A stretch of 64,000 nucleotides of DNA from Candidatus Tabaqchalia intestinavium (GCA_904420005.1 CAJFTT010000042.1:13970-77969); one strand, 5' to 3'; positions 5,273 through 31,144 are shown, counted from the stretch's first letter. Made by a program: numbers and translations. The notes: generated by a model from the letters alone, not told the origin.

Positions 5273-5650
5273 TTGGTGACGATTTACGCTGATTTCGACA
5301 CGGTGGACATGGCGGAATTCGCCGCGCGGCGGCTCAAGCAGAAAGTGCCCGACATCAAAAGCGTGGCGCTGCTCGACAATCGCCATATTCCGTATTACCA
5401 GAATCCCGGCCCAACGTATTTCACGCCGCACAGGGCGGACGGCTCTATGTCGTTTTTCCCCACGCCGGCTTATTTCATGAACGATTACGAGCCGTACAGT
5501 TCACCCTGGAACAACGATATCGGCTATTTCGAGCCGCAGCAGCGCGCCGATACGACGCTGCGTGTGCGGGTGGAGTCCGATAAGCTCAAAGCATGCGAGT
5601 CCACGCTGCGCAATATGGGCGGCATGAAGATCGAGATCACGGATGACTAA
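5273..5650 (+). CDS. Hypothetical protein (125 aa) with Tyr/Pro/Asn/Phe-rich centre
   Basis: Strong RBS AAAGGAGG upstream, host-like codon usage; no family recognised. Confidence 0.7.
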   Translation: MVTIYADFDTVDMAEFAARRLKQKVPDIKSVALLDNRHIPYYQNPGPTYFTPHRADGSMSFFPTPAYFMNDYEPYSSPWNNDIGYFEPQQRADTTLRVRVESDKLKACESTLRNMGGMKIEITDD

Positions 5651-5686
5651 ACGGCAACAGGCCGGAAACAATTTTTTCCCGGCGAG

Positions 5687-6854: not shown

Positions 6855-7195
6855 GCGAGGAAGTCAAACGGTCGCGCGCGCCCATGCCGAAAGGCCGGCG
6901 CGTGAGGAAAGTCCGAGCTCCACAGGGCAGGAATAGCGGATAACGTCCGCCGGAGGCGACTCCAGGGAAAGTGCAACAGAGAGATACCGCCGAGCAATCG
7001 GTAAGGGTGGAAAGGCGAGGTAAGAGCTCACCGGCCTGCGCGGAGACGCGCGGGTCCTGTAAACCCTATTCGGAGCAACACCGTTATGGGACATATGGCT
7101 TGCCCGGCCGTCCCGAGGTGGCTTGAGACCGTCAGCAATGGCGGCCCTAGATAGATGATCGTTCTCGACAGAACTCGGCTTACAGGCTTGCTCGC
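6855..7195 (+). ncRNA. rnpB: RNase P RNA (bacterial class A)
   Basis: Universal motifs GAGGAAAGTCCGAGCTC, GAAAGTGCAACAGA, TAGATAGATG, ACAGAACTCGGCTTA; P1 pairing GCGAGGAAGTC/GGCTTGCTCGC. Confidence 0.96.
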
Positions 7196-7198
7196 ACC

Positions 7199-13507: not shown

Positions 13508-16500
13508 TCATTTGGAATCGATCGTATCGACGGACGGCACGATGTCCTCCAGCACGTCGAGCAGAATGCGCGCCGTGTCGAGCGAGGTGAAAGCAGTCAC
13601 GCCGTTTTCCACTGCGCAGCGGCGGATGTACGCGCCGTCATCGGCGTGCGAGCCGGAAAAAAGCGAACGGGTATTGATGATATAGCTGACATACCCTGCG
13701 CGAATGGATTGCAGGATCTGGTCGCTGCCCTCGCTGATTTTCCCCAGCACGCGGGTTTTGATGCCGTGCTTGCGGAGGAAAGCCGCTGTACCGGCCGTGG
13801 CCTCGATGTTGAAGCCCAGGCGGTAAAACCGCTGCACAAGCGGCAGGGCCTCCTGCTTGTCCTCGTCGGCCAGCGTGACAAGCACGGTACCGTAATCGCG
13901 CACATGAATGCCCGACGCCTGCAGCGCCTTGTACAGCGCGCGGTTGAGCCGCGTGTCGTAGCCGATGGCCTCGCCCGTGGATTTCATTTCCGGGGAGAGA
14001 TAGGTGTCCATGCCGCCGAGCTTCGAGAAAGAGAAGGCCGGCGCTTTGACGTACCACCGCGGTTTCTTGCCGGCGAGGGAAAGCGCCGCGCGCTGCTCCT
14101 GCAGCGATTGCCCCAGCATGGCCCTGACCGCGATCTCCACAAGATTGCAGCCGGCTGACTTGGACAGAAACGGGACGCTGCGGGACGCGCGGGGATTGAC
14201 CTCGATGATATAGACGTTCTCGTCGCTGTCTACGATGAACTGGATATTGAACAGCCCCACGATGCCAATGCCGAGCCCCAGCTTGGTGGTGTAATCGAGG
14301 ATCGTATCCCGCACTTTCTCCGACAGGCTGAAGGGAGGATAGACGCTGATGCTGTCGCCCGAATGCACGCCGGTGCGCTCGACCAGCTCCATGATGCCCG
14401 GCACGAACACTTCCTTGCCGTCGCAGATGGCGTCGACCTCCACCTCTTTGCCGGTGACATATTTGTCGACCAGTACGGGTTTGTCGACGTCGACCTCCAC
14501 GGCGGTTTTCAGATAATGCCGGAGCATGGCGTCGTCCGCCACGATCTCCATCGCCCGGCCGCCGAGCACGAAGCTGGGCCGCACGAGCACCGGGTATCCG
14601 ATCTCCGCCGCGACGCGCAGCCCGTCCTCCATGGTGGTGACGGCCGCGCCGGTCGGATGGGGAATGCCGAGAGAAAGAATGAGGTTTTCAAATGCGTCGC
14701 GGTTCTCGGCCTTTTCGATGGCTTCGCACCCTGTGCCGATGATGCGCACGCCGCGCCGCGCCAGCGGCTCGGCCAGATTGACCGCGGTCTGTCCGCCGAG
14801 GGAAACGATGACGCCCAGCGGCTTTTCATGCTCGAGGACATTCATCACGCTTTCCACCGTCAGCGGCTCGAAATAAAGCTTATCAGCCTGCGTGTAATCG
14901 GTGGAGACCGTCTCGGGGTTGTTGTTGATGACGATGGCTTCATACCCCGCCTCACGAATGGTGCGCAGCGCATGCACGGTGGAATAGTCGAATTCCACGC
15001 CCTGGCCGATGCGGATAGGGCCCGAACCGAGCACGACGATTTTCTCCCGGTCGGTCACGACGGATTCTTCTTCCGCCTCGTAGGTCGAATAGAAATACGG
15101 TACGTAGCTCTCAAATTCCCCCGCGCAGGTGTCGATCATCTTATAGGTGGGGAAGATGCCTTCGCGCCGCCGCATGGCGAACAGATCCTCCTCCTGCAGG
15201 TTCCACAGCTGCGCGAGATACTGATCGGAAAAGCCCATCTTTTTCGCCTGACGCAGCAGCGCGATATCGCCCGGCGCAGCTTCCAGCTCTTTTTCAAAAT
15301 CGACGATATTCTTGATCTTGTCCAGGAAGAACATATCAATCTGCGTGATGTCGCAGATGCGCGAATGGTCAACGCCCAGCCACATCAGCTGCGCGATGGC
15401 GTAAAGCCGGTCGTCCGTGCCCTCTTTGATGTAGTCGAGCAGTTCGTCGACCGTCATATTTTTGCGATCGAACTTCGCGGCGTGAATGTGGCAGACGCCG
15501 GTCTCCAGCGACTGGATGGCTTTGAGAATGCTTTCCTCAAATGTGCGGCCAATAGCCATCACTTCGCCCGTCGCTTTCATCTGGGTAGAGAGGGCATTGG
15601 AGCAGTTGGTGAATTTGTCGAACGGGAAGCGCGGGATTTTTGTCACGACATAATCCAGCGCCGGCTCAAAGCAGGCCGGGGTGTTGATGAGCTGGATTTC
15701 CTCCAGGCGCATGCCCACGGCGATCTTGGCCGATACGCGGGCGATGGGATAGCCGGTGGCTTTGGAAGCCAGGGCAGAGGAGCGCGAGACGCGGGGGTTG
15801 ACCTCGATGACGTAATACTGGAACGACTGGGGATCCAGCGCGAACTGGACGTTGCAGCCGCCCTTGATGCGCAGCGCGCGGATGATGCGCAGCGCGCTGT
15901 CGCGCAGCATCTGGTATTCCTTATTGGTGAGGGTTTGGCTGGGCGCGACGACGACGGAGTCGCCGGTATGAATGCCGACGGGATCGACGTTCTCCATGTT
16001 GCACACGGTGATGGCGGTGTCGTTCGCGTCGCGGATGACTTCGTATTCGATCTCCTTATAGCCCTTGATGCTCTTTTCGATGAGCACCTGATGCACGGGG
16101 GAGAGCGCCAGCGCGTGTTTCATCATTTCCTTGAGCTCCGCGTCGTCATGCGCGAAGCCGCCGCCTGTGCCGCCCAGCGTGAAAGCGGGGCGCAGGATAA
16201 CGGGATAGCCGATTTTCTGCGCGGCGGCCAGCGCTTCCTCCACGCTGAACGTGACTTCGGACGGGATGACCGGTTCGCCGATTTGCAGGCACAGCTCCTT
16301 GAACAGGTCGCGGTCCTCCGCCTGCTCGATGCTCTCCGCGTCGGAACCGAGCAGCTCAATCTGGCATTCGTTGAGCACGCCTTTTTTCGCCAGCTGCATC
16401 GCAAGGTTGAGGCCCGTCTGCCCGCCGAGGCTCGGCACGATGGCGTCCGGCCGTTCATAACGGCAGATGCGCGCGAGATATTCCAGCGTCAGCGGCTCCA

Positions 16501-16688
16501 TATAAACCTTGTCCGCGATAGAGGTGTCCGTCATGATGGTGGCGGGATTAGAGTTGACCAGCACCACCTCGTACCCTTCCTCTTTGAGCGCCAGGCAGGC
16601 CTGGGTGCCGGCATAGTCGAATTCCGCTGCCTGGCCGATGACGATCGGCCCGGAGCCGATGACCATGATTTTGTGCAGATCCGTTCTC

Positions 16689-16696
<8 letters not shown>
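13508..16696 (-). CDS. carB: Carbamoyl-phosphate synthase large subunit
   Basis: MPKRTD...[21 protein letters not shown], two ATP-grasp halves ([21 protein letters not shown]), C-terminal MGS domain. Confidence 0.97.
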
Positions 16697-19404
<2,708 letters not shown>

Positions 19405-19989
19405 TCAGTTATTATAGGTTTTGATAATATTTTCCGCGATCTCCCTGCGCTTGACGCAGGTGTCCATCGCGCGTTTTTCAATATAGCGGTGCGCTTCCGG
19501 CTCGCTCATTTTCATGTGTTCCATCAGCAGCAGCTTGGCGCGGTTGACCAGCCGGATTTCCTCCATTTTGCTCTGCAGCGTGGAAGCTTTGGCTTCCAGC
19601 GCCCGGATTTTCTGCCGCGTGGCAACCAGGAGCTTGACGGACTGAAAAACCATCTGCCGGTTGACCGGCTTGGACAGGGTCAACACACCATAGTCTTCCA
19701 CCCGATGGCTCACGGCGTCCTGCAGCTCGGCTTTGACGAACAGGAGCACGCCGCAGCTCTGTGTCTGGGCTGTTTCCAGCGCGAACTGCACGCCGAAGTC
19801 GTCGGGCAGCGGAGAATTGATGATGAGGATATCAAACGGCCTGTCCACCAACATCCGTCTGGCTTCCCCCACAGTGTGAACGGAGAGGATCGGAGAAAAT
19901 TCCTGCGGCGGCAGAAGCTGGGTCAGCAGCGCCGTCGCTTTCTCGCCTGCAGAAACGATCAAGATGCTCATTTGACTTTTTTCCTGCAT
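19405..19989 (-). CDS. ANTAR-domain RNA-binding antiterminator with pseudo-receiver domain (NitR/AmiR-like)
   Basis: C-terminal ANTAR signature EEIRLVNRAKLLLM..MSEPEAHRYIEKRAMD...RREIAENII; N-terminal REC fold with ILIVSAG and ILIINSPLPD replacing the acidic and phospho-acceptor Asp residues. Confidence 0.9.
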   Translation of the reverse strand: MQEKSQMSILIVSAGEKATALLTQLLPPQEFSPILSVHTVGEARRMLVDRPFDILIINSPLPDDFGVQFALETAQTQSCGVLLFVKAELQDAVSHRVEDYGVLTLSKPVNRQMVFQSVKLLVATRQKIRALEAKASTLQSKMEEIRLVNRAKLLLMEHMKMSEPEAHRYIEKRAMDTCVKRREIAENIIKTYNN

Positions 19990-20028
19990 CAAGCGGGCCT
20001 CTCCTTTCGTGCGGGGTATAGGGGAACG

Positions 20029-21219
20029 TCACGCGAGAATATCCGGCATACAGCGGCGGATCAGCTCGCTTTGCCGGGCCAGCTGGAGCGCTTCCTCCAG
20101 CGTGGCGGGCAGCGTTTCCAGCGCCTGCGTGACGCCGGGACCCGCGGTGAAAAGATTCAGGTCGAGCGGCTGACAGAGCGGAAGGCGTCGGCGGATGCCG
20201 TCAAGCCCCGCGTGGATCAGCAGCGCATAGGCAAGATACGGGTTGGCGGCGGGATCCGGGGAGCGCAGCTCAAAGCGCACATATTGTCCTTTGGCTGCGG
20301 GAATGCGGATCAGCTGAGAACGGTTCTCGGAGGACCAGGTGACATATTTGGGCGCTTTCTTTTCTCCCAGCCGCAGATAGGATTCCTCCGTGGGATTGAG
20401 AAACGCAGTGATTTCGCGAATATGGCAGAGGATCCCCGCCATGAATGCGTCGGTGTCCTCTTTGCCGCGGGGGCTTTGCAGAGAAATGTTAATGTGCAGG
20501 CCGTTGCCGCTCTGCCGCTCGAGCGGCTTGGGAGAGAAGCAGGCGAAGAGGCCGTTTTGTGTGGCGATGGTTTTGACGACCGCCTGGAAGGTGACGGCGT
20601 TGTCCGCGGATGTCAGCGCGTCGCTGTAACGGAAATCGATCTCGTTCTGGCCCGGCCCTTCCTCGTGATGGGAGCTTTCCGGCTGGATCCCCATGTTTTC
20701 CAGCGTCAGGCAGATGTCGCGCCGGATGTTTTCCCCGCGGTCATCCGGCGCAATGTCCATATAGCTGGCGCTGTCAAACGGAATTTTTGTCGGGCGACCG
20801 TTCTCGTCTGTCTGGAACAAATAAAACTCAAATTCCACGCCGAACGAGCAGGAAACCTGCAGCTTTTCCGCTTCTGCGATGGCCTGCTTGAGCAAAAAAC
20901 GGCTGTCCCGGCGAAACGGCGTGCCGTCCGGGTGCCGGATGTCGCAAAACATACGAACCACGCGTCCCTGCGCGGGCCGCCAGGGAAGGACCGAAAGGGT
21001 AGAAGGGTCCGGGAAAAGAAACAGGTCGGACTTCACTTCATCCCCGAAGCCATGGATGGCGGAAGCGTCGAAAGAGATACCATGGAGAAAGGCGCGCTCC
21101 AGCTCCGCCGGCATGATGGCGATGTTTTTCTGCTTTCCCGTGAGGTCGCAGAACGCCAAACGGATGAATTTGACGTCTTCTTCCTGGCAGTAGGTCATCA
21201 CTTCGTCATAGGAATACAT
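20029..21219 (-). CDS. glnA: Glutamine synthetase type I-like protein, C-terminally truncated, catalytic flap Glu absent
   Basis: KFIRLAFCD, FDASAI, GVEFEFYLF, HHEEGPGQNEIDF, PKP...GNGLH, NRSQLIRIP, FELRSPDPAANPY; 396 aa. Confidence 0.88.
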   Translation of the reverse strand: MYSYDEVMTYCQEEDVKFIRLAFCDLTGKQKNIAIMPAELERAFLHGISFDASAIHGFGDEVKSDLFLFPDPSTLSVLPWRPAQGRVVRMFCDIRHPDGTPFRRDSRFLLKQAIAEAEKLQVSCSFGVEFEFYLFQTDENGRPTKIPFDSASYMDIAPDDRGENIRRDICLTLENMGIQPESSHHEEGPGQNEIDFRYSDALTSADNAVTFQAVVKTIATQNGLFACFSPKPLERQSGNGLHINISLQSPRGKEDTDAFMAGILCHIREITAFLNPTEESYLRLGEKKAPKYVTWSSENRSQLIRIPAAKGQYVRFELRSPDPAANPYLAYALLIHAGLDGIRRRLPLCQPLDLNLFTAGPGVTQALETLPATLEEALQLARQSELIRRCMPDILA

Positions 21220-21341
21220 GCTTTTCCTTCCTTTCTATGTTTCTATGCAGCGGCTCTATGCTGCGGCGCGAACGTCGTTCCCCTGCAAAGCGGCCGGCGC
21301 GAACCATGCCGGAACGAAGCTCCCAAGCGGCCGTGTGCAAC

Positions 21342-21409
21342 AAAAAAAGCGTCTCATATGCCGCGAGAAGAAACACTTCTCCAAAACATATGAACGCCAT
21401 TGCCCATAT
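21342..21409 (-). promoter_or_regulatory. ANTAR-target hairpin overlapping an intrinsic terminator (glnA-like operon leader)
   Basis: Minus-strand RNA AUAUGGGC-AAUGGC-GUUCAUAU; its 3' arm alternatively pairs with CAUAUGAGACGC, followed by U7. Confidence 0.75.
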
Positions 21410-21431
21410 CGAATTCCCCTATTTTCTTTTT

Positions 21432-21461
21432 ATTATATAATCTTGCACACAGGTTTGTCAA
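21432..21461 (-). promoter_or_regulatory. SigA promoter of the glnA-like/ANTAR/pyrG...dapL operon
   Basis: Minus strand TTGACA-18 bp-TATAAT. Confidence 0.8.
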
Positions 21462-21520
21462 TACCCGTTTTCGCGTTTTTTCGGTCTTGTAATCGTTTTG
21501 CGGTTGACTGCCCTCCATCC

Positions 21521-21549
21521 TTGCTATGGCCAGCTTCATGTGGTAAAAT
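21521..21549 (+). promoter_or_regulatory. SigA-type promoter of the flavodoxin/ferredoxin gene
   Basis: TTGCTA-17 bp-TAAAAT with extended -10 TG. Confidence 0.55.
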
Positions 21550-21620
21550 GACGAAAGAGCCGATCTGTGGCGATTCGCCCGGAATAAACCGGCAGCGCAC
21601 AGGAAAGGGGAGCGCAATGT

Positions 21621-22379
21621 ATGGGAACTATCTGCTGCGTCAGTTTCAGCCCGACCGGAACGAGCAAAAACGTAGCATGTCAGATTGCACGGGAGTTGGA
21701 AGGCGAGAAAACCACCGTTGATCTGTGCGAAGCTCCCGCAAAAGACATCCAGTTTGGACGCAACGATCTCTGCATCTTTTCCGTGCCATGCTACGGAGGC
21801 CGGATCCCGCAGACTGCGGCGGCGAGGCTTTCCCGCCTGCACGGGGATGCGACTGCGGCGATTGTCTGCGTCACATTTGGAAACCGCGCGTTTGAGGACG
21901 CATTGCTGGAACTGGCGGATACAGTAGAGGCGCAGGGGTTTGCCGTGTTTGCCGGTGCGGCTGTCGCGGCAGAGCATACTATTATGCATATCTTTGGGCA
22001 GGGGCGCCCGGACGCGGCGGACCGGGAGGAGATTGCGGCGTTCGCGCGTCAAGCGGCCCGAAAGCACTGCGCCGGCGACAGCGTTCGGCCCGCGTTACCG
22101 GGCAATCGTCCTTATCGGGCGTGGCACGGCGGCAGCACCCCCATTTTGGTGAAGGAAGCGACCTGCAACCACTGCGGGCTGTGCGCGCAGCGCTGTCCGG
22201 TGGACGCGATTTCGCCCGACGGCAGCAGGACGGACGCGGGGCAGTGCATTGGCTGCATGCGCTGCATTCAGCAGTGCCCTACCGCGAGCCGATCCCTGCC
22301 GGCCGAGCATGTCGCGGCGCTGATCGCGCGGCTGGGGCCCGCGTGTGAAGGCAGGAAAGCGAATGCATTTTACTTATAA
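21621..22379 (+). CDS. Flavodoxin-like + 2x[4Fe-4S] ferredoxin fusion (EFR1 family)
   Basis: FSPTGTSKNVA, PCYGGRIP, FGNRAFEDALLEL; CNHCGLCAQRCP and CIGCMRCIQQCP. Confidence 0.88.
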   Translation: MGTICCVSFSPTGTSKNVACQIARELEGEKTTVDLCEAPAKDIQFGRNDLCIFSVPCYGGRIPQTAAARLSRLHGDATAAIVCVTFGNRAFEDALLELADTVEAQGFAVFAGAAVAAEHTIMHIFGQGRPDAADREEIAAFARQAARKHCAGDSVRPALPGNRPYRAWHGGSTPILVKEATCNHCGLCAQRCPVDAISPDGSRTDAGQCIGCMRCIQQCPTASRSLPAEHVAALIARLGPACEGRKANAFYL

Positions 22380-22506
22380 TGGCTATAACGGCGAACAACA
22401 CGGCAGGCGTTGTTTCCGGCACCAACCGGAGAATCTCGCAAGATGTGTGGAGAAGGCCGCTGCTTGCGGGTGAAATATGAAAATTTATAAAAATTCGAAT
22501 CGGGGG

Positions 22507-22535
22507 TTGACAAACTGGCACGAAGAGAGTATACT
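22507..22535 (+). promoter_or_regulatory. SigA promoter of the GSIII-gltB-gltD operon
   Basis: TTGACA-17 bp-TATACT. Confidence 0.85.
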
Positions 22536-22543
22536 CTCAACGT

Positions 22544-22772
22544 AACAACGGCAATGACGTCGCGGTAAGAAATTTCTGCTTCGTCGTTGTTTTTTTATTT
22601 CCCGGACAAAGCCCGGCAGCGATCGGCGGTTTTGCCAATGGAGGCGAAAATCGCTTGGCCGGAGGAACCGGAACGGTGCGGCCGATAGTCTGGGGAAAAT
22701 ATTCTTTTGTGAACAAGCGGCAAGGGCGTCGCGGGACAGTTGTCCCGAGGAGCCCCTGTCGCTTTATTTTTT
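22544..22772 (+). promoter_or_regulatory. Leader with three ANTAR-type hairpins and two overlapping intrinsic terminators
   Basis: CGGC-AATGAC-GTCG (22549-22562), GCC-AATGGA-GGC (22634-22645), CGGC-AAGGGC-GTCG (22718-22731); terminator stems AACAACGGC/GTCGTTGTT + T tract and AAGCGGCAAGGGC/GCCCCTGTCGCTT + T-rich tract. Confidence 0.78.
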
Positions 22773-22789
22773 ATCAAGGAGTTGTTTGT

Positions 22790-24886
22790 ATGAATGCGAT
22801 CACAAACCTGTTTGGCACGAACGTTTTCAACGACGCGGTGATGCGCGAGCGTCTTCCCAAGGAAACGTACCGGCAGCTGCAGCGCACAGTTAAAGAAGGC
22901 AAGCATCTGGACAATGCGGTCGCCAATGTCGTTGCCAACGCCATGAAGGATTGGGCCATCGAAAAGGGAGCGACGCATTTCACGCACTGGTTCCAGCCCA
23001 TGACAGGCATCACGGCGGAAAAGCACGACAGCTTTATTACGCCGACGGACGACGGGCGCGTCATTTTGGAATTTTCCGGCAAGGAGCTGATCCAGGGAGA
23101 GCCGGACGCGTCGTCTTTCCCCTCCGGCGGCCTGCGGGCGACCTTTGAGGCCAGAGGATATACCACCTGGGATCCCACTTCTTATGCGTTCATTAAGGGG
23201 AAAACGCTGTGCATCCCGACGGCGTTTTGCTCGTACGGCGGGGAAGCGCTGGACAAGAAAACGCCGCTGCTGCGCTCGATGGAGGCCATCAATCGGCAGG
23301 CGCTGCGCGTTCTGCGCCTGTTTGGCGACACGGCGGTGACCTCTGTCAAGACGACCGTAGGCCCTGAACAGGAATATTTCCTGGTAGAAAGGGAAATGTT
23401 TGAAAAACGCCCCGATCTGGTATTCACCGGCCGGACTCTGTTCGGCGCGCGGCCGCCCAAGGGACAGGAGCTGGACGATCATTATTTCGGCACCATCAAA
23501 ACCCGCGTGGCTGAATACATGGAGGACCTCAACGAAGAGCTGTGGAAGCTGGGCGTGCTGGCCAAGACGGAGCATAATGAAGTCGCGCCGGCGCAGCACG
23601 AGCTCGCGCCTATTTTCAGCACGACCAATATCGCCACCGATCACAACCAGCTGACGATGGAGCTGATGCAGCGCATCGCGAAAAAGCATGGCCTGGTCTG
23701 CCTGCTGCATGAAAAGCCGTTTGCCGGCGTCAACGGCTCCGGCAAGCATAATAACTGGTCGATCTCCACCAGCACCGGCAAGAACCTGCTGGATCCGGGC
23801 GACACGCCGCGGGAGAACGCGCAATTTTTGCTGTTTTTGTGCGCGGTTATCCAGGCGGTGGATGATTACCAGGATCTGCTGCGCGTGTCGGTCGCCTCGG
23901 CGGGCAACGACCATCGCCTGGGTGCCAATGAAGCGCCGCCGGCGATCGTTTCGATCTTCCTGGGGACGGAGCTGACGGAGATTCTCGACTCCATCGAAAA
24001 GGACGAACAGTACGGCACGAAGGAAAAAGAGCTGTGGAAGGTCGGCGTACATATTCTTCCGCGCTTCCCCAAAGACACGACCGACCGCAACCGCACTTCG
24101 CCGTTTGCGTTTACAGGTAACAAATTCGAGTTCCGCATGCTGGGTTCCAGCAATTCCATTTCGGGCGCCAACATCGTGCTCAACACCGCCGTGGCGGAGA
24201 GCCTCCGGCAGTATGCCGATGAGCTGGAATCGGCGGAGGATTTCAACAAAGCGCTGCATGATCTGATCCAGCGCACCATCCGGGAACACAAGCGCATCAT
24301 CTTCAACGGTAACGGCTACGATGAGGCGTGGGTGAAGGAAGCGGAGCGCCGTGGGTTGCTCAACCTCAAGACGACCCCGGAATGCCTGCCTTACTTCTGC
24401 GCGGAGAAAAATGTGCAGCTGTTCACGCAGCATCGCGTATTTTCCGAGACGGAGATCAACGCCCGCTGCGAGATTATGCTGGAGACCTACAGCAAGATGC
24501 TCAATATCGAGGCGCTGACCATGCTGGATATGGCCAATAAGGATCTGCTGCCGGCCTATTCGGCGTACGCCCGGCAGCTCAGCGAGGCGCTTCTTGCGAA
24601 GAAAGAGGCGGCGCCCGGCGTGGACTGCACGTACGAGGAAGAGCTGCTGCGCAAGGTTTCCGGTCTGTGCGGCGGTATGTATCAGAAAACCAAGGCGCTG
24701 GAAGCGACGCTGCTGGAGCTTGTCCATAAGGACTGCAGCGAGCTTGAGAAGGCTCAGTATTACCGCTCGGTGGTGTTTGGCGCCATGAATGAGCTGCGCA
24801 TTGTCGCCGACGAGCTGGAAAGCGTGACGGATCGCAAATATTATCCGTATCCCACCTATGGCGATCTGCTGTTCGGCGTGCGCTGA
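22790..24886 (+). CDS. glnN: Glutamine synthetase type III
   Basis: [101 protein letters not shown]; ATG 22790 after RBS AAGGAG. Confidence 0.96.
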
Positions 24887-25145
24887 CGGCTTTCTTCAAC
24901 GGGAGAAGGATTTTTGTGCCGGAGACCGCAGCGAGAGTCTGGCGGCCCGCACGGACGGCGGTACCGGCGCTGTCCGAAGGGATGTCGGCGGGAGCCGTTG
25001 AACGGGGAATGATTTGAATCAGACGGGCGGAATGCGTGCGACGCTTCCCGGGTTCGGGAGGGTCGCGCGCGTTCCGCCGCAAACAGCCGCAGCGCGGAAA
25101 TTTCGCCGCGCGCTGCGGCAAATTGAGCAACTGGAGGGTATCGGA

Positions 25146-28100
25146 ATGCAACAGCAACAACAGGGCCTGTACCAGCCGTCGTTTGAGCACGACGCCTGCG
25201 GCATCGGCGCGGTCGTCCAGATCAAGGGGAAGAAGAGCCATCAGGTCGTGGACGACGCGCTGAAGATCGTTGAAAAGCTCGAACACCGCGCCGGAAAGGA
25301 CGCCACGGGCGAGGTCGGGGACGGCGTGGGGATCATGCTGCAGATCTCGCACCCGTTTTTTGAGAGCGTGGCGCAGGAGCATGGCTGCTTTCTGGGGAAA
25401 GAAAGGGAATACGGCGTAGGGATGTTTTTCTTCCCGCAGAATCGGCTCTTGCGCACGCAGGCGATGAAAATGCTGGAGGTCATCGTGCAGAAGGAGGGGC
25501 TGGAGCTTGCCTTCTGGCGCGAGGTACCCGTGCACCCGGAGGTTTTGGGCAAAAAGGCGCTTGACTGCATGCCTGCGATTTATCAGTGTTTCATCAAAAA
25601 GCCGAAGGATTTGCCCGCCGGCATCGCGTTTGACCGGCGGCTTTACGTGGTGCGCCGCACATTTGAACAGAGCGACAACGGCACGTATGTCGCGTCGCTG
25701 TCCAGCAGGACCATTGTGTATAAAGGGATGTTCCTGGTGCATCAGCTGCGGGAATTTTATGACGATCTGCAGGATGAACGCTATACTTCGGCGATGGCGC
25801 TGGTGCATTCCCGCTTTTCCACCAATACCAATCCCAGCTGGGAACGGGCGCATCCCAACCGGTTCCTGCTGCACAACGGCGAGATCAACACCATCCGTGG
25901 CAACGTCGACCGTATGCTCGCCCGGGAGGAAACGATGCATTCTCCTTTCCTGCAGGGGGACATGGACAAGATCCTGCCGGTCGTGGACGACAATGGTTCC
26001 GATTCCGCGATTCTCGACAATACGATTGAATTTCTCGTCATGAACGGGATGGATTTGCCGCTGGCCATGATGATCACCATCCCTGAGCCCTGGGACGGAG
26101 AGGAGAATATCAGCCGGGAGAAAAAGGACTTTTACCGGTATTACGCCACGATGATGGAACCATGGGACGGTCCCGCCTCCATCCTGTTTTCCGACGGCGA
26201 TCTCGTGGGCGCGACGCTCGACCGGAACGGGCTGCGGCCTTCGCGCTACTATGTGACGGACGACGACATGCTCATTCTCGCCTCCGAAGTAGGGGTGCTG
26301 GATATCCCGCCGGAACGCATCGTGCGCAAGGCGCGTCTGGAACCCGGAAAAATGCTGGCGGTCGATATGATGCAGGGCAGGATTCTTTCCGATGAAGAGC
26401 TGAAAAATTCTTATGCCCGCCGGCAGCCGTACGGAGAATGGCTCGACCGGAACGTGGTCAATCTCGCCACGCTTAAAGCGCCCAATCAGAAGGTGGAGAC
26501 ACATCCGCAGGCGCAGCGCGACAAGCTGTATAAAGCGTTTGGCTATACCTATGAGGATATCAAGACGGCGATTCTCCCCATGGCGCGGGACGCCAACGAG
26601 CAGACCGCTTCGATGGGGATCGACATCCCGCTTGCGGTGCTGTCCGACAAGCACCAGCCGCTGTTTAACTATTTTAAGCAGAGCTTCGCGCAGGTCACGA
26701 ATCCGCCCATCGACGCCATCCGGGAGAAGATCGTCACCAGCACCACGGTATACGCCGGCTCCGACGGCAATCTGCTCGAGGAAAAGCCGGAAAACTGCAC
26801 GGTGCTGCAGATCGACAATCCCATTCTCACCAGCGTCGATATGCTCAAGATCAAGGCGCTCGACCGCCCCGGACTGAAAACGGCCACCGTGTCGCTGCTG
26901 TATTACCGCAACACACCCGTGAAGAAAGCGCTGGATCGCCTGTTTGTGCAGGTGGATAAGGCCTATAAGAACGGGGCGAATATCATTGTTCTGTCCGACC
27001 GCGGCGTGGATGAGAATCACGTCGCCATCCCGTCCCTGCTTGCCGTGTCGGCTATGGAGCAGTATCTGATCCGCACCAAAAAGCGCACGGCTATTTCCAT
27101 CATCCTGGAAAGCGGGGAGCCGCGCGACGTCCATCATTTTGCGACGCTGCTGGGCTACGGCGCGATCGCGATCAATCCGTATCTCGCGCAGGAAGCCATC
27201 GAGGAACTGATTGAGAACAACATGCTCAACAAGGATCTGTATGTGGCCATTGCGGACTACAACAAAGCGATTCTCAGCGGCGTGGTCAAGATCGCTTCCA
27301 AAATGGGCATTTCCACGCTGCAATCGTATCAGTCAGCGCAGATTTTCGAAGCGGTCGGCATCAAGCAATCGGTGATCGATGCCTATTTTACCAATACGGT
27401 CAGCCGCGTGGAGGGGATCGGGCTGGAGGAGATCGATCAGGACATCCATGTCCGGCACGCGCATGCGTTCGACCCGCTGGGGCTGGGCGTGGATACCACG
27501 CTGGATTCTTCCGGCAGCTATCATCTGCGCAGCGGCAGGGATAAGGACGATCATCTTTACTCGCCCGAGGTGATTGTGGCGTTGCAGCAGGCGACGAAAA
27601 CCGGCAGCTATGAGAAATTCCAGGAGTATACCGCGATGGTGGACGACGAAACCCGGCCGCATACGCTGCGGGGACTGATGGATTTTGTTTTCGACGAAGC
27701 GGGCGGCGTTCCGCTGGAAGAGGTGGAACCGGCCGAGTCCATCGTGCGGCGGTTTAAGACCGGCGCGATGTCCTATGGCTCGATTTCCGAGGAAGCGCAC
27801 AAATGTATGGCGCTGGCGATGAACCAGCTCGGCGGCAAATCCAACTCCGGCGAGGGCGGCGAGCTGCCCGAGCGTCTGAATTCCGAATATGGCAGCGCCA
27901 TCAAGCAGGTGGCGTCCGGCCGCTTCGGCGTCACAAGCGAATATCTCATTTCGGCACGGGAGATCCAGATCAAGATGGCGCAGGGTGCGAAACCGGGCGA
28001 AGGCGGCCACTTGCCCGGCAAAAAGGTGTATCCCTGGATTGCGAAAACGCGCTATTCCACGCCCGGCGTGTCGCTGATTTCGCCGCCGCCCCATCATGAC

Positions 28101-29666
28101 ATCTATTCCATTGAAGATCTTGCGCAGCTGATCTACGACCTGAAAAATGCGAACCACAATGCGGATATTTCCGTCAAGCTCGTTTCCGAAGCGGGGGTGG
28201 GAACCATCGCCGCCGGCGTCGCGAAAGCGGGCGCCAGCGTCGTGCTCATTTCCGGCTATGACGGCGGCACCGGCGCCGCGCCGCGCAATTCCATCCACAA
28301 TGCCGGCATGCCCTGGGAGCTGGGGCTGGCGGAAGCGCACCAGACGCTGATGCAAAACGGCCTGCGTTCCCGGGTGCGGCTGGAAACGGACGGCAAGCTC
28401 ATGAGCGGGCGGGACGTGGCCATCGCCTGCCTGCTCGGCGCAGAGGAATTTGGCTTTGCGACGGCGCCGCTGGTGGTGATGGGCTGCCGGATGATGCGGG
28501 TATGCAACCTCGACACCTGTCCCTTCGGGATCGCGACGCAGAATCCCAAATTGCGGCAGCGGTTTGCCGGCAAGCCGGAATACATCGTCAATTTCATGCT
28601 GTTCATCGCGCAGCAGCTGCGCGAAATCATGGCGAAGCTCGGCGTGCGCACGGTCGACGAGATGGTGGGGCGGACCGACCTGCTCAGAAAGCGGGAGAAT
28701 TCCGCGGCGCCCCGCGGCGCGCTGGTGGATCTGTCGAGGATTCTGGCCCGGCCTTATCACGGCACCTGCCATTACCGGAAAGAGGACGCCTATGATTTTG
28801 CGCTGGAGAAAACGGTGGATGAGAGCGTCCTTCTGCCCAAGCTGCGGAAAAATCTCATGACAGGGGAGCCGGGAAAAGTGGAGCTGCGCGTTTCCAGCAC
28901 AGACCGGACGGTCGGCACGCGTTTCGGCTCCGAGGTGACGCGCCGGTTCGGCGGCAGCTTGCAGGAAGACACGTTCCGGATCTTCTGTCACGGCGGTGGC
29001 GGGCAATCCTTCGGCGCGTTTGTGCCACAGGGAGTGACGCTGATCCTCGACGGCGACAGCAACGATTACTTCGGCAAGGGGCTTTCCGGCGGCAAGCTGG
29101 TCGTTTCCCCGCCGAAGCGCAGCCGCTTTGCCGCCGAAGAGAATATCATCATCGGCAATGTGGCGCTGTATGGCGCGACCGGAGGCAAAGCGTTCATCAA
29201 CGGTATCGCCGGCGAACGGTTCTGCGTGCGCAATTCCGGCGCGCTGGCGGTGGTGGAAGGCGTGGGCGACCACGGCTGCGAATATATGACCGGCGGCACG
29301 GCGGTGATTCTGGGACCGACGGGCAAGAATTTCGCCGCCGGCATGAGCGGCGGCGTCGCCTATGTGCTGGATGCGGCGCATGACCTGTACCGCAAGGTGA
29401 ATAAGGAAATGGTTTCGATCGAGCCGCTCGCCGAACGGCACGACGTGGAGGAGCTGCGCCGCATTGTGACGGAGCATTATCAGAACACTTCTTCTGCGCT
29501 GGCCAAAAGGATTCTCATGGATTTTGACGCGTATGTCCCGCAGTTCAAAAAGATCCTGCCCAATGACTACCGGAAAATGCTTGCTGCCATTTCTTCTATG
29601 GAAAAAATGGGCATGAACCGGGCAGAAGCGGAGATCGAAGCGTTTTATCAGAACACGAGGGGGTAA
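25146..29666 (+). CDS. gltB: Glutamate synthase large subunit
   Basis: EHDACGIG Ntn Cys, HSRFSTNT, GAMSYGSIS, KMAQGAKPGEGG, CRMMRVCNLDTCP [3Fe-4S] motif, GXGXG domain; ATG 25146 after RBS GGAGG. Confidence 0.97.
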   Translation: MQQQQQGLYQPSFEHDACGIGAVVQIKGKKSHQVVDDALKIVEKLEHRAGKDATGEVGDGVGIMLQISHPFFESVAQEHGCFLGKEREYGVGMFFFPQNRLLRTQAMKMLEVIVQKEGLELAFWREVPVHPEVLGKKALDCMPAIYQCFIKKPKDLPAGIAFDRRLYVVRRTFEQSDNGTYVASLSSRTIVYKGMFLVHQLREFYDDLQDERYTSAMALVHSRFSTNTNPSWERAHPNRFLLHNGEINTIRGNVDRMLAREETMHSPFLQGDMDKILPVVDDNGSDSAILDNTIEFLVMNGMDLPLAMMITIPEPWDGEENISREKKDFYRYYATMMEPWDGPASILFSDGDLVGATLDRNGLRPSRYYVTDDDMLILASEVGVLDIPPERIVRKARLEPGKMLAVDMMQGRILSDEELKNSYARRQPYGEWLDRNVVNLATLKAPNQKVETHPQAQRDKLYKAFGYTYEDIKTAILPMARDANEQTASMGIDIPLAVLSDKHQPLFNYFKQSFAQVTNPPIDAIREKIVTSTTVYAGSDGNLLEEKPENCTVLQIDNPILTSVDMLKIKALDRPGLKTATVSLLYYRNTPVKKALDRLFVQVDKAYKNGANIIVLSDRGVDENHVAIPSLLAVSAMEQYLIRTKKRTAISIILESGEPRDVHHFATLLGYGAIAINPYLAQEAIEELIENNMLNKDLYVAIADYNKAILSGVVKIASKMGISTLQSYQSAQIFEAVGIKQSVIDAYFTNTVSRVEGIGLEEIDQDIHVRHAHAFDPLGLGVDTTLDSSGSYHLRSGRDKDDHLYSPEVIVALQQATKTGSYEKFQEYTAMVDDETRPHTLRGLMDFVFDEAGGVPLEEVEPAESIVRRFKTGAMSYGSISEEAHKCMALAMNQLGGKSNSGEGGELPERLNSEYGSAIKQVASGRFGVTSEYLISAREIQIKMAQGAKPGEGGHLPGKKVYPWIAKTRYSTPGVSLISPPPHHDIYSIEDLAQLIYDLKNANHNADISVKLVSEAGVGTIAAGVAKAGASVVLISGYDGGTGAAPRNSIHNAGMPWELGLAEAHQTLMQNGLRSRVRLETDGKLMSGRDVAIACLLGAEEFGFATAPLVVMGCRMMRVCNLDTCPFGIATQNPKLRQRFAGKPEYIVNFMLFIAQQLREIMAKLGVRTVDEMVGRTDLLRKRENSAAPRGALVDLSRILARPYHGTCHYRKEDAYDFALEKTVDESVLLPKLRKNLMTGEPGKVELRVSSTDRTVGTRFGSEVTRRFGGSLQEDTFRIFCHGGGGQSFGAFVPQGVTLILDGDSNDYFGKGLSGGKLVVSPPKRSRFAAEENIIIGNVALYGATGGKAFINGIAGERFCVRNSGALAVVEGVGDHGCEYMTGGTAVILGPTGKNFAAGMSGGVAYVLDAAHDLYRKVNKEMVSIEPLAERHDVEELRRIVTEHYQNTSSALAKRILMDFDAYVPQFKKILPNDYRKMLAAISSMEKMGMNRAEAEIEAFYQNTRG

Positions 29667-29671
29667 GAGAC

Positions 29672-31144
29672 ATGGGAAAGCCGACGGGTTTTTTGGAATA
29701 TGATCGCTGTGCGACGCCGGCCAGGGCGCCGCAGGAGCGCCTGAAGGATTTTGAAGAATTTCACAGCGCGCTGTCCGAAGAGGAACGCCGCCGGCAGGGC
29801 GCGCGCTGCATGAACTGCGGCGTGCCGTTCTGCCAGTCCGGCATGATGCTGCACGGCATGGCGACCGGTTGCCCGCTGCACAATCTCATCCCGGAATGGA
29901 ACGACGAGGTGTTCCATGGCAATACCTGGCACGCGCTGTCACGGCTGCTCAAGACAAACAATTTCCCGGAATTCACCGGTCGGGTCTGCCCCGCGCTCTG
30001 CGAGGTAGCGTGCCTGTGCGGCGTGGAGGATTCGCCTGTTACCATACGGGAAAATGAACTGGCTATCATCGAAAAAGGCTTTTCAGATGGATTCATGCAG
30101 CCGCGCGTGCCGGCGGTGCGCACGGAAAAGCGGGTGGCCATCGTCGGCTCCGGGCCGGCCGGGCTCGCGTGCGCCGATATGCTCAACCAACGCGGCCATC
30201 GCGTGACAGTCTACGAAAAAAGCGACCGGCCGGGCGGACTGCTGATGTATGGCATCCCCAACATGAAGCTCGACAAATCTGTGGTGGCGCGCCGGGTGTC
30301 GCTGATGCAGGAAGAGGGCGTCCGCTTTCTCACAAGCACCGACGTGGGACGGGATGTGTCGCCGCAGACGCTGCGGGAACAGTTTGACGCGGTGGTGCTT
30401 TGCTGCGGTGCGGGAAGGCCGCGCGACATCCAGACGGAAGGAAGAGAGGCCGCGCAGGGTGTTTATTTCGCGGTGGATTTCCTCACGCGCAATACCAAGA
30501 GCTATCTTGACGCCCGGTTTGCTGATGGGAATTTTATCAATGCGAAGGACAAACATGTCGTGATCGTCGGCGGCGGAGACACTGGGAATGATTGCGTGGG
30601 GACGGTGCTGCGGCATGGCTGCAAATCCGTGACGCAGCTCGAGATGATGCCGCAGCCGCCGCAGGCCCGCGCGGAGGATAATCCCTGGCCGGAATATCCG
30701 CGGGTGTGCAAGGTCGATTACGGCCAGGAGGAAGCGATCGCCGTGTTCGGTGAGGATCCGCGTCGTTACAGCACGACCGTCAAGCGGATTCTGACAGACG
30801 ACAGCGGCGCAGTCACGGCAATCCAGACGGTGAAAATGGCTTTTGACGCGCAGAACCGCTATGTTCCGGTTTCGGGCAGCGAGGAGGAGATTGCGTGCGA
30901 CCTGCTGCTCATCGCCGCGGGTTTCACGGGTTGCGAGCCGTATGTGCCGGAGGCGTTTGAAGTGCCGCTCTCTGCGCGGGGAACGGTACAGACCGCCGCA
31001 GGGCACTATGCGACAGAGGTCCCGGGCGTTTTCACAGCGGGCGATATGCATCGGGGCCAGTCATTGGTAGTGTGGGCCATTGCCGAGGGAAGGGAATGCG
31101 CACGGGAGGTCGACCGGTTTTTGGAGGGCTATTCTAACATGTGA
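29672..31144 (+). CDS. gltD: Glutamate synthase small subunit
   Basis: MGKPTGFLEY, RCMNCGVPFC, NNFPEFTGRVCPALCE, GSGPAGLA, GGGDTGNDC, RGQSLVVWAI. Confidence 0.96.
   Translation: MGKPTGFLEYDRCATPARAPQERLKDFEEFHSALSEEERRRQGARCMNCGVPFCQSGMMLHGMATGCPLHNLIPEWNDEVFHGNTWHALSRLLKTNNFPEFTGRVCPALCEVACLCGVEDSPVTIRENELAIIEKGFSDGFMQPRVPAVRTEKRVAIVGSGPAGLACADMLNQRGHRVTVYEKSDRPGGLLMYGIPNMKLDKSVVARRVSLMQEEGVRFLTSTDVGRDVSPQTLREQFDAVVLCCGAGRPRDIQTEGREAAQGVYFAVDFLTRNTKSYLDARFADGNFINAKDKHVVIVGGGDTGNDCVGTVLRHGCKSVTQLEMMPQPPQARAEDNPWPEYPRVCKVDYGQEEAIAVFGEDPRRYSTTVKRILTDDSGAVTAIQTVKMAFDAQNRYVPVSGSEEEIACDLLLIAAGFTGCEPYVPEAFEVPLSARGTVQTAAGHYATEVPGVFTAGDMHRGQSLVVWAIAEGRECAREVDRFLEGYSNM

Follow-up and report, generated by a model that had tools for sequence, protein, structure and literature searches.

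Tandem, probably ANTAR-dependent attenuators with one hexaloop each in the leader of a type III glutamine synthetase gene

The RNA determinant of ANTAR-domain proteins is a hairpin with a loop of six nucleotides (hexaloop) that carries A at position 1 and G at position 4 (A1/G4), and nitrogen regulons were predicted in Firmicutes in 2012, including matches before operons that contain glutamine synthetase (GS) and ANTAR genes (PMC3369931 and its Table S2). EutV tolerates only 5-12 nucleotides (nt) between its hairpins (PMC3369931, PMC8934654). In a EutV-RNA structure published in 2022, the protein dimer contacts one hexaloop, the minimal binding motif is a single hexaloop, and the authors ask for bioinformatic studies of sites with one hexaloop (PMC8934654). 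In Clostridium saccharobutylicum, GS and glutamate synthase (GOGAT) genes are induced by the ANTAR antiterminator NitR (PMC6316151), and in Clostridium thermocellum an ANTAR gene (Clo1313_2030) is clustered with genes for a type I GS (2031), GOGAT (2032-2036) and a type III GS, or GSIII (2038) (PMC4676874, PMC5887222, PMC9888227). Here we describe a related locus of Candidatus Tabaqchalia intestinavium (GCA_904420005.1), contained in a stretch of 64,000 nt (CAJFTT010000042.1:13970-77969) that we call the window. The leader of its GSIII gene, which spans 254 nt from the promoter to the GSIII ATG, contains two hairpin-terminator units in a row. We consider it likely that these are NitR-type, protein-dependent ANTAR attenuators acting in series, each with a single hexaloop.

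Part of this description has precedents. As in the NitR system and in the C. thermocellum cluster, the ANTAR gene of the window lies beside a type I GS gene and near GOGAT and GSIII, and the regulator of those systems is thought to induce GS/GOGAT under nitrogen limitation; in C. saccharobutylicum an antisense RNA has been reported as well. The serial layout, called non-canonical in a preliminary description of this DNA, is not peculiar to the locus. For Desulfotomaculum acetoxidans, Table S2 of PMC3369931 lists a pair of predicted ANTAR elements that lie upstream of the same amtB-PII genes, some 190 nt from each other, with further matches before GS, GOGAT and ANTAR genes; those elements were found with a dual-hairpin model, span 45-76 nt and are compared here by their listing in the table. 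Because of the 2012 predictions, NitR and the C. thermocellum neighbourhood, neither the regulatory role nor the serial layout is new. The difference from known systems appears to be the RNA site itself, with a single hexaloop per terminator as a conserved rule. Our literature search found no report of ANTAR terminators with a single hexaloop in the leaders of nitrogen genes; Stutz et al. 2007, on NitR antitermination of the glnA/gltAB cluster, was outside its coverage.

The elements of the GSIII leader are the following:

22507-22535, plus strand: sigma-70-type promoter, TTGACA-17-TATACT, with 11 of 12 consensus matches
22549-22562, plus strand: hairpin H1, CGGC-AAUGAC-GUCG, with an A1/G4 hexaloop; -4.9 kcal/mol alone
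22550-22596, plus strand: intrinsic terminator 1, with its stem at 22550-22591, a small inner hairpin at the tip and seven U at 22590-22596
22717-22732, plus strand: hairpin H2, GCGGC-AAGGGC-GUCGC, with an A1/G4 hexaloop; -7.7 kcal/mol alone
22715-22772, plus strand: intrinsic terminator 2, with a stem at 22715-22764 that encloses all of H2 and a U-rich tail, UUUAUUUUUU
22790-24886, plus strand: GSIII gene, the first after the leader (Pfam GSIII_N 3e-83, Gln-synt_C-ter 5.9e-43)

From the position of the promoter, transcription is predicted to start at about 22542-22543. The promoter and the two near-duplicate units, each with a C-AANGNN-G hexaloop hairpin (H1 and H2), are present within a few bases of where they had been noted before. 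A 17-nt core, CGGCAANGNCGTCGCGG, is common to both units; copies without mismatch occur only at 22549 and 22718, and the next best match in the 64-kb window has two mismatches.

In each unit a stable G+C-rich stem leads straight into a U run, as expected of an intrinsic terminator. Folding of the leader, which had been suggested as a check, yielded -17.7 kcal/mol for terminator 1 (z -3.84) and -35.1 kcal/mol for terminator 2 (z -5.97), and none of 200 shuffles was as stable in either case. Terminator 2 was also detected as an inverted repeat, and a ribosome-binding site, AAGGAG, follows it at 22776-22781. A simple promoter/terminator scan listed neither terminator because their loops exceed its length limit. 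Terminator 1 takes in most of H1 (22550-22559) and terminator 2 all of H2; hence, hairpin and terminator are mutually exclusive in both units. The earlier view that the 5' arm of each hairpin alternatively enters a terminator stem followed by a U tract holds in this form, except that the 5' arm is not the only part involved: the loop is included too, and so is some or all of the 3' arm. The anatomy is thus that of the ANTAR-type attenuator that had been proposed, with an A1/G4 hexaloop that excludes an intrinsic terminator and an ANTAR gene about 2.5 kb away, and the same three traits (A1/G4 hexaloops, a terminator-exclusive hairpin and an ANTAR domain) are found in EutV/eutP of Enterococcus faecalis, NasR/nasF, AmiR/amiE and NasT/NalA. 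H1 and H2 are presumed to be the ANTAR-bound antiterminators of units 1 and 2.

Conservation of the hexaloops among orthologous GSIII leaders had been named as a further check, together with a search for covariation; the hexaloops are conserved and the stem covaries. A scan with the GSIII protein, limited to one genome per species, gave 79 loci, about a dozen of them from Treponema and the majority from uncultured Oscillospiraceae and other Clostridia, and these make 80 sources together with the window. The nearest relatives of the window GSIII are those of loci L001 and L018 (85% protein identity). Units were searched in the 500 nt 5' of GSIII as a C-AANGNN-G hairpin with a stem of at least 3 pairs and a U run after it, and the hairpin before the U run had to pair back into the hexaloop hairpin. 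An earlier criterion, under which loop nucleotides had to pair with the last 25 nt, was passed by 29 of 60 candidates and was replaced. The search returned 51 units of hairpin and overlapping terminator in 41 of the 80 sources. When a covariance model of the hairpin (R1) was used instead, a unit was found within 330 nt upstream of GSIII in 44 of the 79 loci; H1 and H2 score 28.2 and 26.9 bits on R1, and both units belong to its training set.

The order of elements is usually the same: a -10 box, about a dozen bases, AAACGGC-AAAGGC-GYCG, a small hairpin of variable loop, the 3' arm and the U run, with a ribosome-binding site and ATG typically 20-50 nt further on. The typical 3' arm is complementary to the hexaloop and to at least one of the two stem arms that flank it. 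In 36-45 of the 51 units, the distal arm of the terminator forms pairs with the 3' arm of the hexaloop hairpin and with the 3' half of its loop.

When the 51 hairpins are aligned without gaps, stem pair 2 is GU in 20, GC in 16, AU in 11 and UA in 3, while stem pair 3 is GC in 38, AU in 9 and GU in 3. Stem pair 4, which the search filter does not force, is CG in 37, AU in 4, GU in 1 and UA in 1, and is unpaired in 7. The covariation score was 0.41 compared with 0.21 in shuffles, none of which reached 0.41 in 500 attempts, and did not exceed 0.13 when partners were slid. Run on a separate MAFFT alignment, made from 36 of the 51 complete units, RNAalifold predicts precisely the 4-bp hairpin (the 15 left out were those of L003, L004, L015, L029, L050 and L077, both units of L005, L053 and L055, and the second units of L044, L071 and L073). 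A terminator does not need a 5' arm that folds on itself, and the covariation of the stem therefore argues that the hairpin is a structure in its own right.

The pattern is also enriched. In 78 GSIII upstream regions of 250 nt (19.5 kb), there are 54 C-AANGNN-G hairpins with 3 or more stem pairs in the sense orientation, 12 in antisense and 2.1 after shuffling, and the same pattern has 38 matches in 162 kb of GSIII coding sequence. A census of 337 hexaloop hairpins with any loop in the leaders yielded AAAGGC (16), AAGGGC (7) and AAUGGC (5) as the commonest loops, and C-AANGNN-G accounts for 39 of these 337 compared with 189 of 29,333 in the background. An A1/G4 hexaloop is present in H1 (AAUGAC), in H2 (AAGGGC) and in all 51 units, which were selected for it; the unbiased census agrees.

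The two hairpins joined by a short linker (5-12 nt in eut genes) that define the dual-hairpin ANTAR motif are not found here. Of the 51 units, 9 have a second A1/G4 hexaloop (stem of 3 pairs or more) in the 45 nt before the hairpin, where 7.8 are expected, and 6 have one between hairpin and U run; hence, no enrichment of a partner hexaloop within 45 nt of the hairpin is seen in this set. A promoter with at least 9 of 12 consensus matches, mostly a perfect TTGACA-17-TATAAT, precedes the first unit in 26 of the 41 sources. In 22 of these 26 leaders the -10 box ends 11-15 nt 5' of the stem, and the 13 nt of the window are typical, so that just some 4-8 transcribed bases precede the hairpin. The earlier remark that the first unit has no space for an upstream partner is thus correct and applies to the whole family. 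The presence of near-consensus promoters before the attenuators is in keeping with control at a step later than initiation. Judged by sequence, the hairpin stands alone, with one hexaloop per terminator. In this the leaders differ from EutV/eutP-type sites, which have two required hairpins 5-12 nt apart, and they also differ in that often no more than about 4-8 nt of transcript precede the hexaloop hairpin.

Two R1 units precede GSIII in 13 loci besides the window. Spacing from loop to loop ranges from 54 to 169 nt in these tandem leaders, the longest being that of the window (169 nt), and is 90 and 103 nt in L001 and L018. In several lineages, Treponema included, the first unit has a loop of the type AAUGA(C/G) and the second one of the type AA(A/C/G)G(G/A)(C/U). 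Recurrence of these loop types across lineages suggests that the tandem arrangement is old rather than a recent duplication in the genome of the window.

The 13 loci of Treponema or other Spirochaetaceae in the set (L003-L009, L015, L053, L055, L067, L071 and L073) deserve a separate comment. The Treponema GSIII proteins are 60-75% identical to that of the window, and hexaloop attenuators, some of them in tandem, lie 5' of GSIII in 8 of the 13 (L003-L005, L015, L053, L055, L071 and L073). In L005, L071 and L073 there is in addition a divergent carAB operon with a unit of its own. One possible explanation for the Treponema units is that GSIII and its leader may have been transferred together between phyla.

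The candidate regulator is encoded on the other strand:

19405-19992, minus strand: ANTAR-domain regulator of 195 amino acids with a degenerate (pseudo-)receiver (Pfam ANTAR 1.5e-18)
20029-21219, minus strand: type I-alpha-like GS of 396 amino acids, the first gene of the divergent operon

An ANTAR homologue is found in 26 of the 79 loci, and in about 20 its gene lies directly downstream of a type I GS gene, divergent from GSIII. The window has this gene order, and in it the arrangement typical of NitR systems: the ANTAR gene follows the type I GS gene and stands beside GS/GOGAT targets. The GSIII leader contains an R1 unit in every one of the 26 loci with the homologue, compared with 18 of the 53 others (Fisher 2.8e-9, ignoring relatedness).

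The ANTAR domain of the window protein scores 66.8 bits, above the curated cut-off of 27.3, while its Response_reg match (22 bits) stays under the cut-off of 30.2. Its best relatives of solved structure are Rv1626 (3.5e-14), EutV (7.6e-07), AmiR and NasR, and 5,700 relatives of this pseudo-receiver protein are detected at E ≤ 1e-10. An Asn is aligned with the phospho-acceptor Asp of Rv1626 and EutV and occupies this position in 22 of 23 ANTAR orthologues, and the orthologue alignment shows that the N-terminal acidic pair is absent; hence, the receiver does not have the features of one that can be phosphorylated. In the ANTAR domain itself, the invariant Ala, Lys and Glu are retained, and Tyr164 of EutV is replaced by His, as in AmiR. 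The regulator is therefore unlike the kinase-driven EutV and resembles AmiC-AmiR and NasS-NasT, in which a receiver-like domain works without phosphorylation. Since the receiver is not phosphorylatable, the signal probably arrives through a partner protein. In AmiC-AmiR and NasS-NasT the sensor is periplasmic-binding-protein-like, whereas the partner that we propose for the window regulator is a glutamine synthetase.

By that analogy, the type I GS is a candidate for the nitrogen sensor or partner of the ANTAR protein. Residues that we take to be the metal- and substrate-binding (catalytic) motifs of GS are invariant across 21 type I GS sequences, and the alignment of the window protein stops about 35 residues before the end of the Bacillus subtilis GS chain. 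According to a title by Rydzak et al. 2017, deletion of the type I GS reportedly deregulates nitrogen metabolism. A complex prediction for the type I GS and the ANTAR protein scored 0.10, with the mark at 0.32, and this value speaks neither for binding nor against it. One protein of the comparison set, P0055 (294 amino acids), consists of a type I GS C-terminus and an ANTAR protein of the L018 type, joined by a linker that looks out of frame; it was rejected as a GS-ANTAR fusion, since it has the look of a gene call produced by read-through or a frameshift.

The operon of the regulator has a hexaloop leader too:

21388-21409, minus strand: hexaloop hairpin of the GS-I/ANTAR leader, AUAUGGGC-AAUGGC-GUUCAUAU (12.9 bits, E 0.3)
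21342-21398, minus strand: terminator that overlaps this hairpin, -23.5 kcal/mol (z -3.17), with seven U at 21348-21342

The operon occupies 13508-21219 and encodes, head to tail, the type I GS, the ANTAR protein, pyrG, carA and carB, with a gap of 12 nt between the ANTAR gene and pyrG and overlaps between the later genes; the attenuator near 21400 precedes all five. Other loci have conserved a GTTC-type variant of the hairpin upstream of the type I GS/ANTAR operon. A loose unit finder was unspecific (655 matches, 586 of them outside GSIII leaders), and tightening brought these down to 72. With the strict criteria, both strands of 2.27 Mb thus hold 72 units, 41 upstream of GSIII and 31 elsewhere. 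Among the latter, 13 precede the type I GS/ANTAR operon and have the GTTC-type stem variant, 3 precede an amtB-PII fusion gene, and pyrG, carA and a GATase_2 gene are preceded by 2 each; the other 9 are mirror images of palindromic terminators, lie within genes or stand before no recognisable gene. The separate attenuators are found before pyrG in L022 and L077 and before carA in L071 and L073. All the targets that could be identified make or consume glutamine or import ammonium, and glutamine-consuming enzymes thus seem to be part of the regulon.

From this anatomy we infer binding of the ANTAR protein, termination, and the nature and direction of the signal, and the mechanism would be as follows. 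A strong and probably constitutive promoter would initiate about 6 nt 5' of H1, and by default each unit would terminate transcription, at about 22592-22597 in unit 1 and at about 22766-22773 in unit 2. An active ANTAR dimer would seize the nascent hexaloop hairpin of 4-5 bp before the 3' arm of the terminator is made, with one hexaloop per unit and no upstream recruitment hairpin. The captured hairpin would withhold the 5' arm, leaving the 3' arm unpaired and the lower stem blocked, and read-through would follow; the small hairpin at the tip may still form, and would then be 10-18 nt away from the U run. The pseudo-receiver protein would probably be controlled by a partner, most likely the co-transcribed type I GS signalling glutamine or nitrogen status, by analogy with AmiC-AmiR, NasS-NasT and GS-TnrA/GlnR. 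The same type of hairpin on the operon of the regulator would provide autoregulation, and in relatives the control could extend to amtB-PII, pyrG, carA and the GATase_2 gene.

Two termination decisions in series are known from tandem riboswitches and attenuators to sharpen and deepen a response. In tandem riboswitches the RNA binds a ligand, whereas the effector of the GSIII leader would be a protein. Both units must be passed, and read-through would thus be the product of two decisions, with lower leak and a steeper response. Steep nitrogen-dependent induction, as proposed in the preliminary description, is hence a reasonable inference from the two serial terminators.

Several observations weigh against a single-hexaloop ANTAR switch. 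One is that two hexaloops are needed by EutV (PMC3369931, PMC8934654), by NasR, whose affinity for a single hairpin is about 12 uM (PMC7496416), and by NasT (PMC10783516). Another is energetic: with -4.9 and -7.7 kcal/mol, the isolated hairpins are much less stable than the terminators (-17.7 and -35.1 kcal/mol), and a kinetic, co-transcriptional trap must therefore be assumed. Conservation is incomplete, as 35 of the 79 loci lack a unit, and the lack of variation at C, A1, A2, G4 and the closing G in the 51 units results partly from selection, just as the first three stem pairs are forced by the search filter. The association between unit and ANTAR gene takes no account of relatedness, and many contigs are short. 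Moreover, the inventory of ANTAR proteins is that of the 64-kb window and the genome may encode others, and the fetched flanks of the Treponema loci that carry units contain no ANTAR gene.

Some of these observations would be accommodated if the conserved hairpin were read by another RNA-binding protein, or were itself a small ligand-sensing RNA, and the neighbouring ANTAR protein had no part in it. Recognition by ANTAR is deduced from nucleotide sequence, the ANTAR proteins tested so far all require two hairpins, and in Treponema the hairpin occurs with no ANTAR gene in the flanks that were fetched. We regard this explanation as unlikely, however. The loop consensus has exactly the ANTAR determinant, A1 and G4, every locus with an ANTAR gene has the unit, and a hairpin of 14-16 nt is too small for a known metabolite riboswitch. 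Rfam searches at the gathering score, made on the window and five loci, detected only RNase P and a tRNA and nothing in the leaders, and a search of 21100-22900 at E ≤ 10 gave no family that accounts for the leader. Besides, the crystal structure shows the EutV dimer in contact with a single hexaloop (PMC8934654).

A second alternative concerns unit 2 only, and involves an additional hairpin that lies in the spacer between the units:

22630-22649, plus strand: third hexaloop hairpin, UUUUGCC-AAUGGA-GGCGAAA, in the 115-nt spacer

The third hexaloop between the units had been noticed before and is indeed present. In this alternative, unit 2 would be a canonical dual-hexaloop site in which the third hairpin acts as the recruitment hairpin P1 for H2, brought near by folding of the spacer, and unit 1 would be the only single one. 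The third hairpin satisfies the generic ANTAR loop rule (A1/G4), has a C-G closing pair and a 7-bp stem, and reaches -14.4 kcal/mol with its extension (z -3.2); chance would yield a hexaloop of the type A..G.. with a stem of 7 or more pairs only 0.007 times per 115 nt. Furthermore, the spacer forms a closed multi-branch domain in the fold of the whole leader, and the 10-bp stem that closes it ends 16 nt before H2. On the other hand, the third hairpin scores only 1.1 bits on R1, and on this ground it was rejected as a member of the family. It is absent from L001 and L018, the two nearest relatives, whose spacers are much shorter and have no counterpart of this one, and the other 13 tandem leaders do without such a hairpin. 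Its end is 67 nt from H2, while antitermination by EutV is abolished by linkers of 14 nt or lengthened by 20 nt (PMC3369931, PMC8934654). The earlier suggestion that it is a distant partner of H2 is thus left unsupported on sequence grounds, and the canonical dual site that it would create appears improbable, slightly more so than recognition by a different protein or ligand. The third hairpin may instead be a lineage-specific extra binding site or a decoy. The spacer that contains it (22597-22711) exceeds that of most other tandem leaders by 60-100 nt, and has no copies elsewhere, which ruled out an origin from a repeat or mobile element.

That the units are plain, unregulated terminators or pause sites, with the hairpin as a by-product of terminator sequence, is highly improbable: the terminators are strong and contain all of H2 and most of H1, but the stem of the hairpin covaries although a terminator 5' arm need not fold on itself, the loop letters are conserved across Clostridia and Treponema, and strong unregulated terminators after a consensus promoter would silence an essential assimilation operon.

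The reading that we prefer, namely ANTAR-dependent attenuators with one hexaloop per terminator, leads to a broader idea, which we put forward tentatively and with rather less than even confidence. One hexaloop at the 5' end would suffice for ANTAR antitermination, and the need for two hairpins would not be general. Pseudo-receiver ANTAR proteins, which form a large family, would together with a short type I GS run a single-hexaloop nitrogen regulon in gut Clostridia, with GSIII-GOGAT, their own operon, amtB-PII, pyrG and carAB as members; the RNA elements are found in Treponema too, and tandem copies would set the gain. ANTAR proteins are widespread and their RNA targets are currently sought with a two-hairpin model, so dual-hairpin searches may undercount ANTAR regulons. 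The leaders described here make up a natural, conserved set of dozens of putative single-hexaloop terminator switches with a candidate regulator, and with GSIII leaders the sufficiency of one hairpin for antitermination becomes directly testable. They also offer a sketch of how nitrogen assimilation might be controlled in abundant gut anaerobes, which to our knowledge lack classical NtrC or TnrA circuits.

The genes that follow GSIII in the window encode the two subunits of glutamate synthase:

25014-29666, plus strand: glutamate synthase large subunit
29672-31144, plus strand: glutamate synthase small subunit

GSIII and the glutamate synthase genes are presumed to form one transcript. A terminator-like hairpin with AUUUUUG is found directly 3' of the GSIII stop codon (24890-24909), and co-transcription of GSIII and GOGAT is not certain. 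Scanning of the gap between them (24887-25013) with the hairpin model detected no hairpin of the family. In other loci a hexaloop attenuator lies just 3' of GSIII, before the contig end in L027 and before amtB-PII in L067, and L001 has a hexaloop hairpin at this place without a clear terminator.

Upstream, a gene for an EFR1-family ferredoxin (21621-22379, plus strand) stops 127 nt short of the GSIII promoter, and an A+T-rich stretch is found immediately 5' of the -35 box. Elsewhere in the window, the hairpin model gives a weak match at 5646-5672 on the plus strand (13.1 bits, E 0.25), just 5' of a gene for an S1-domain protein; folding shows no clear overlapping terminator, and the match is probably due to chance. 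The RNase P RNA detected in the Rfam search is of bacterial class A and lies at 6856-7198 on the plus strand (266 bits, E 9.4e-86).

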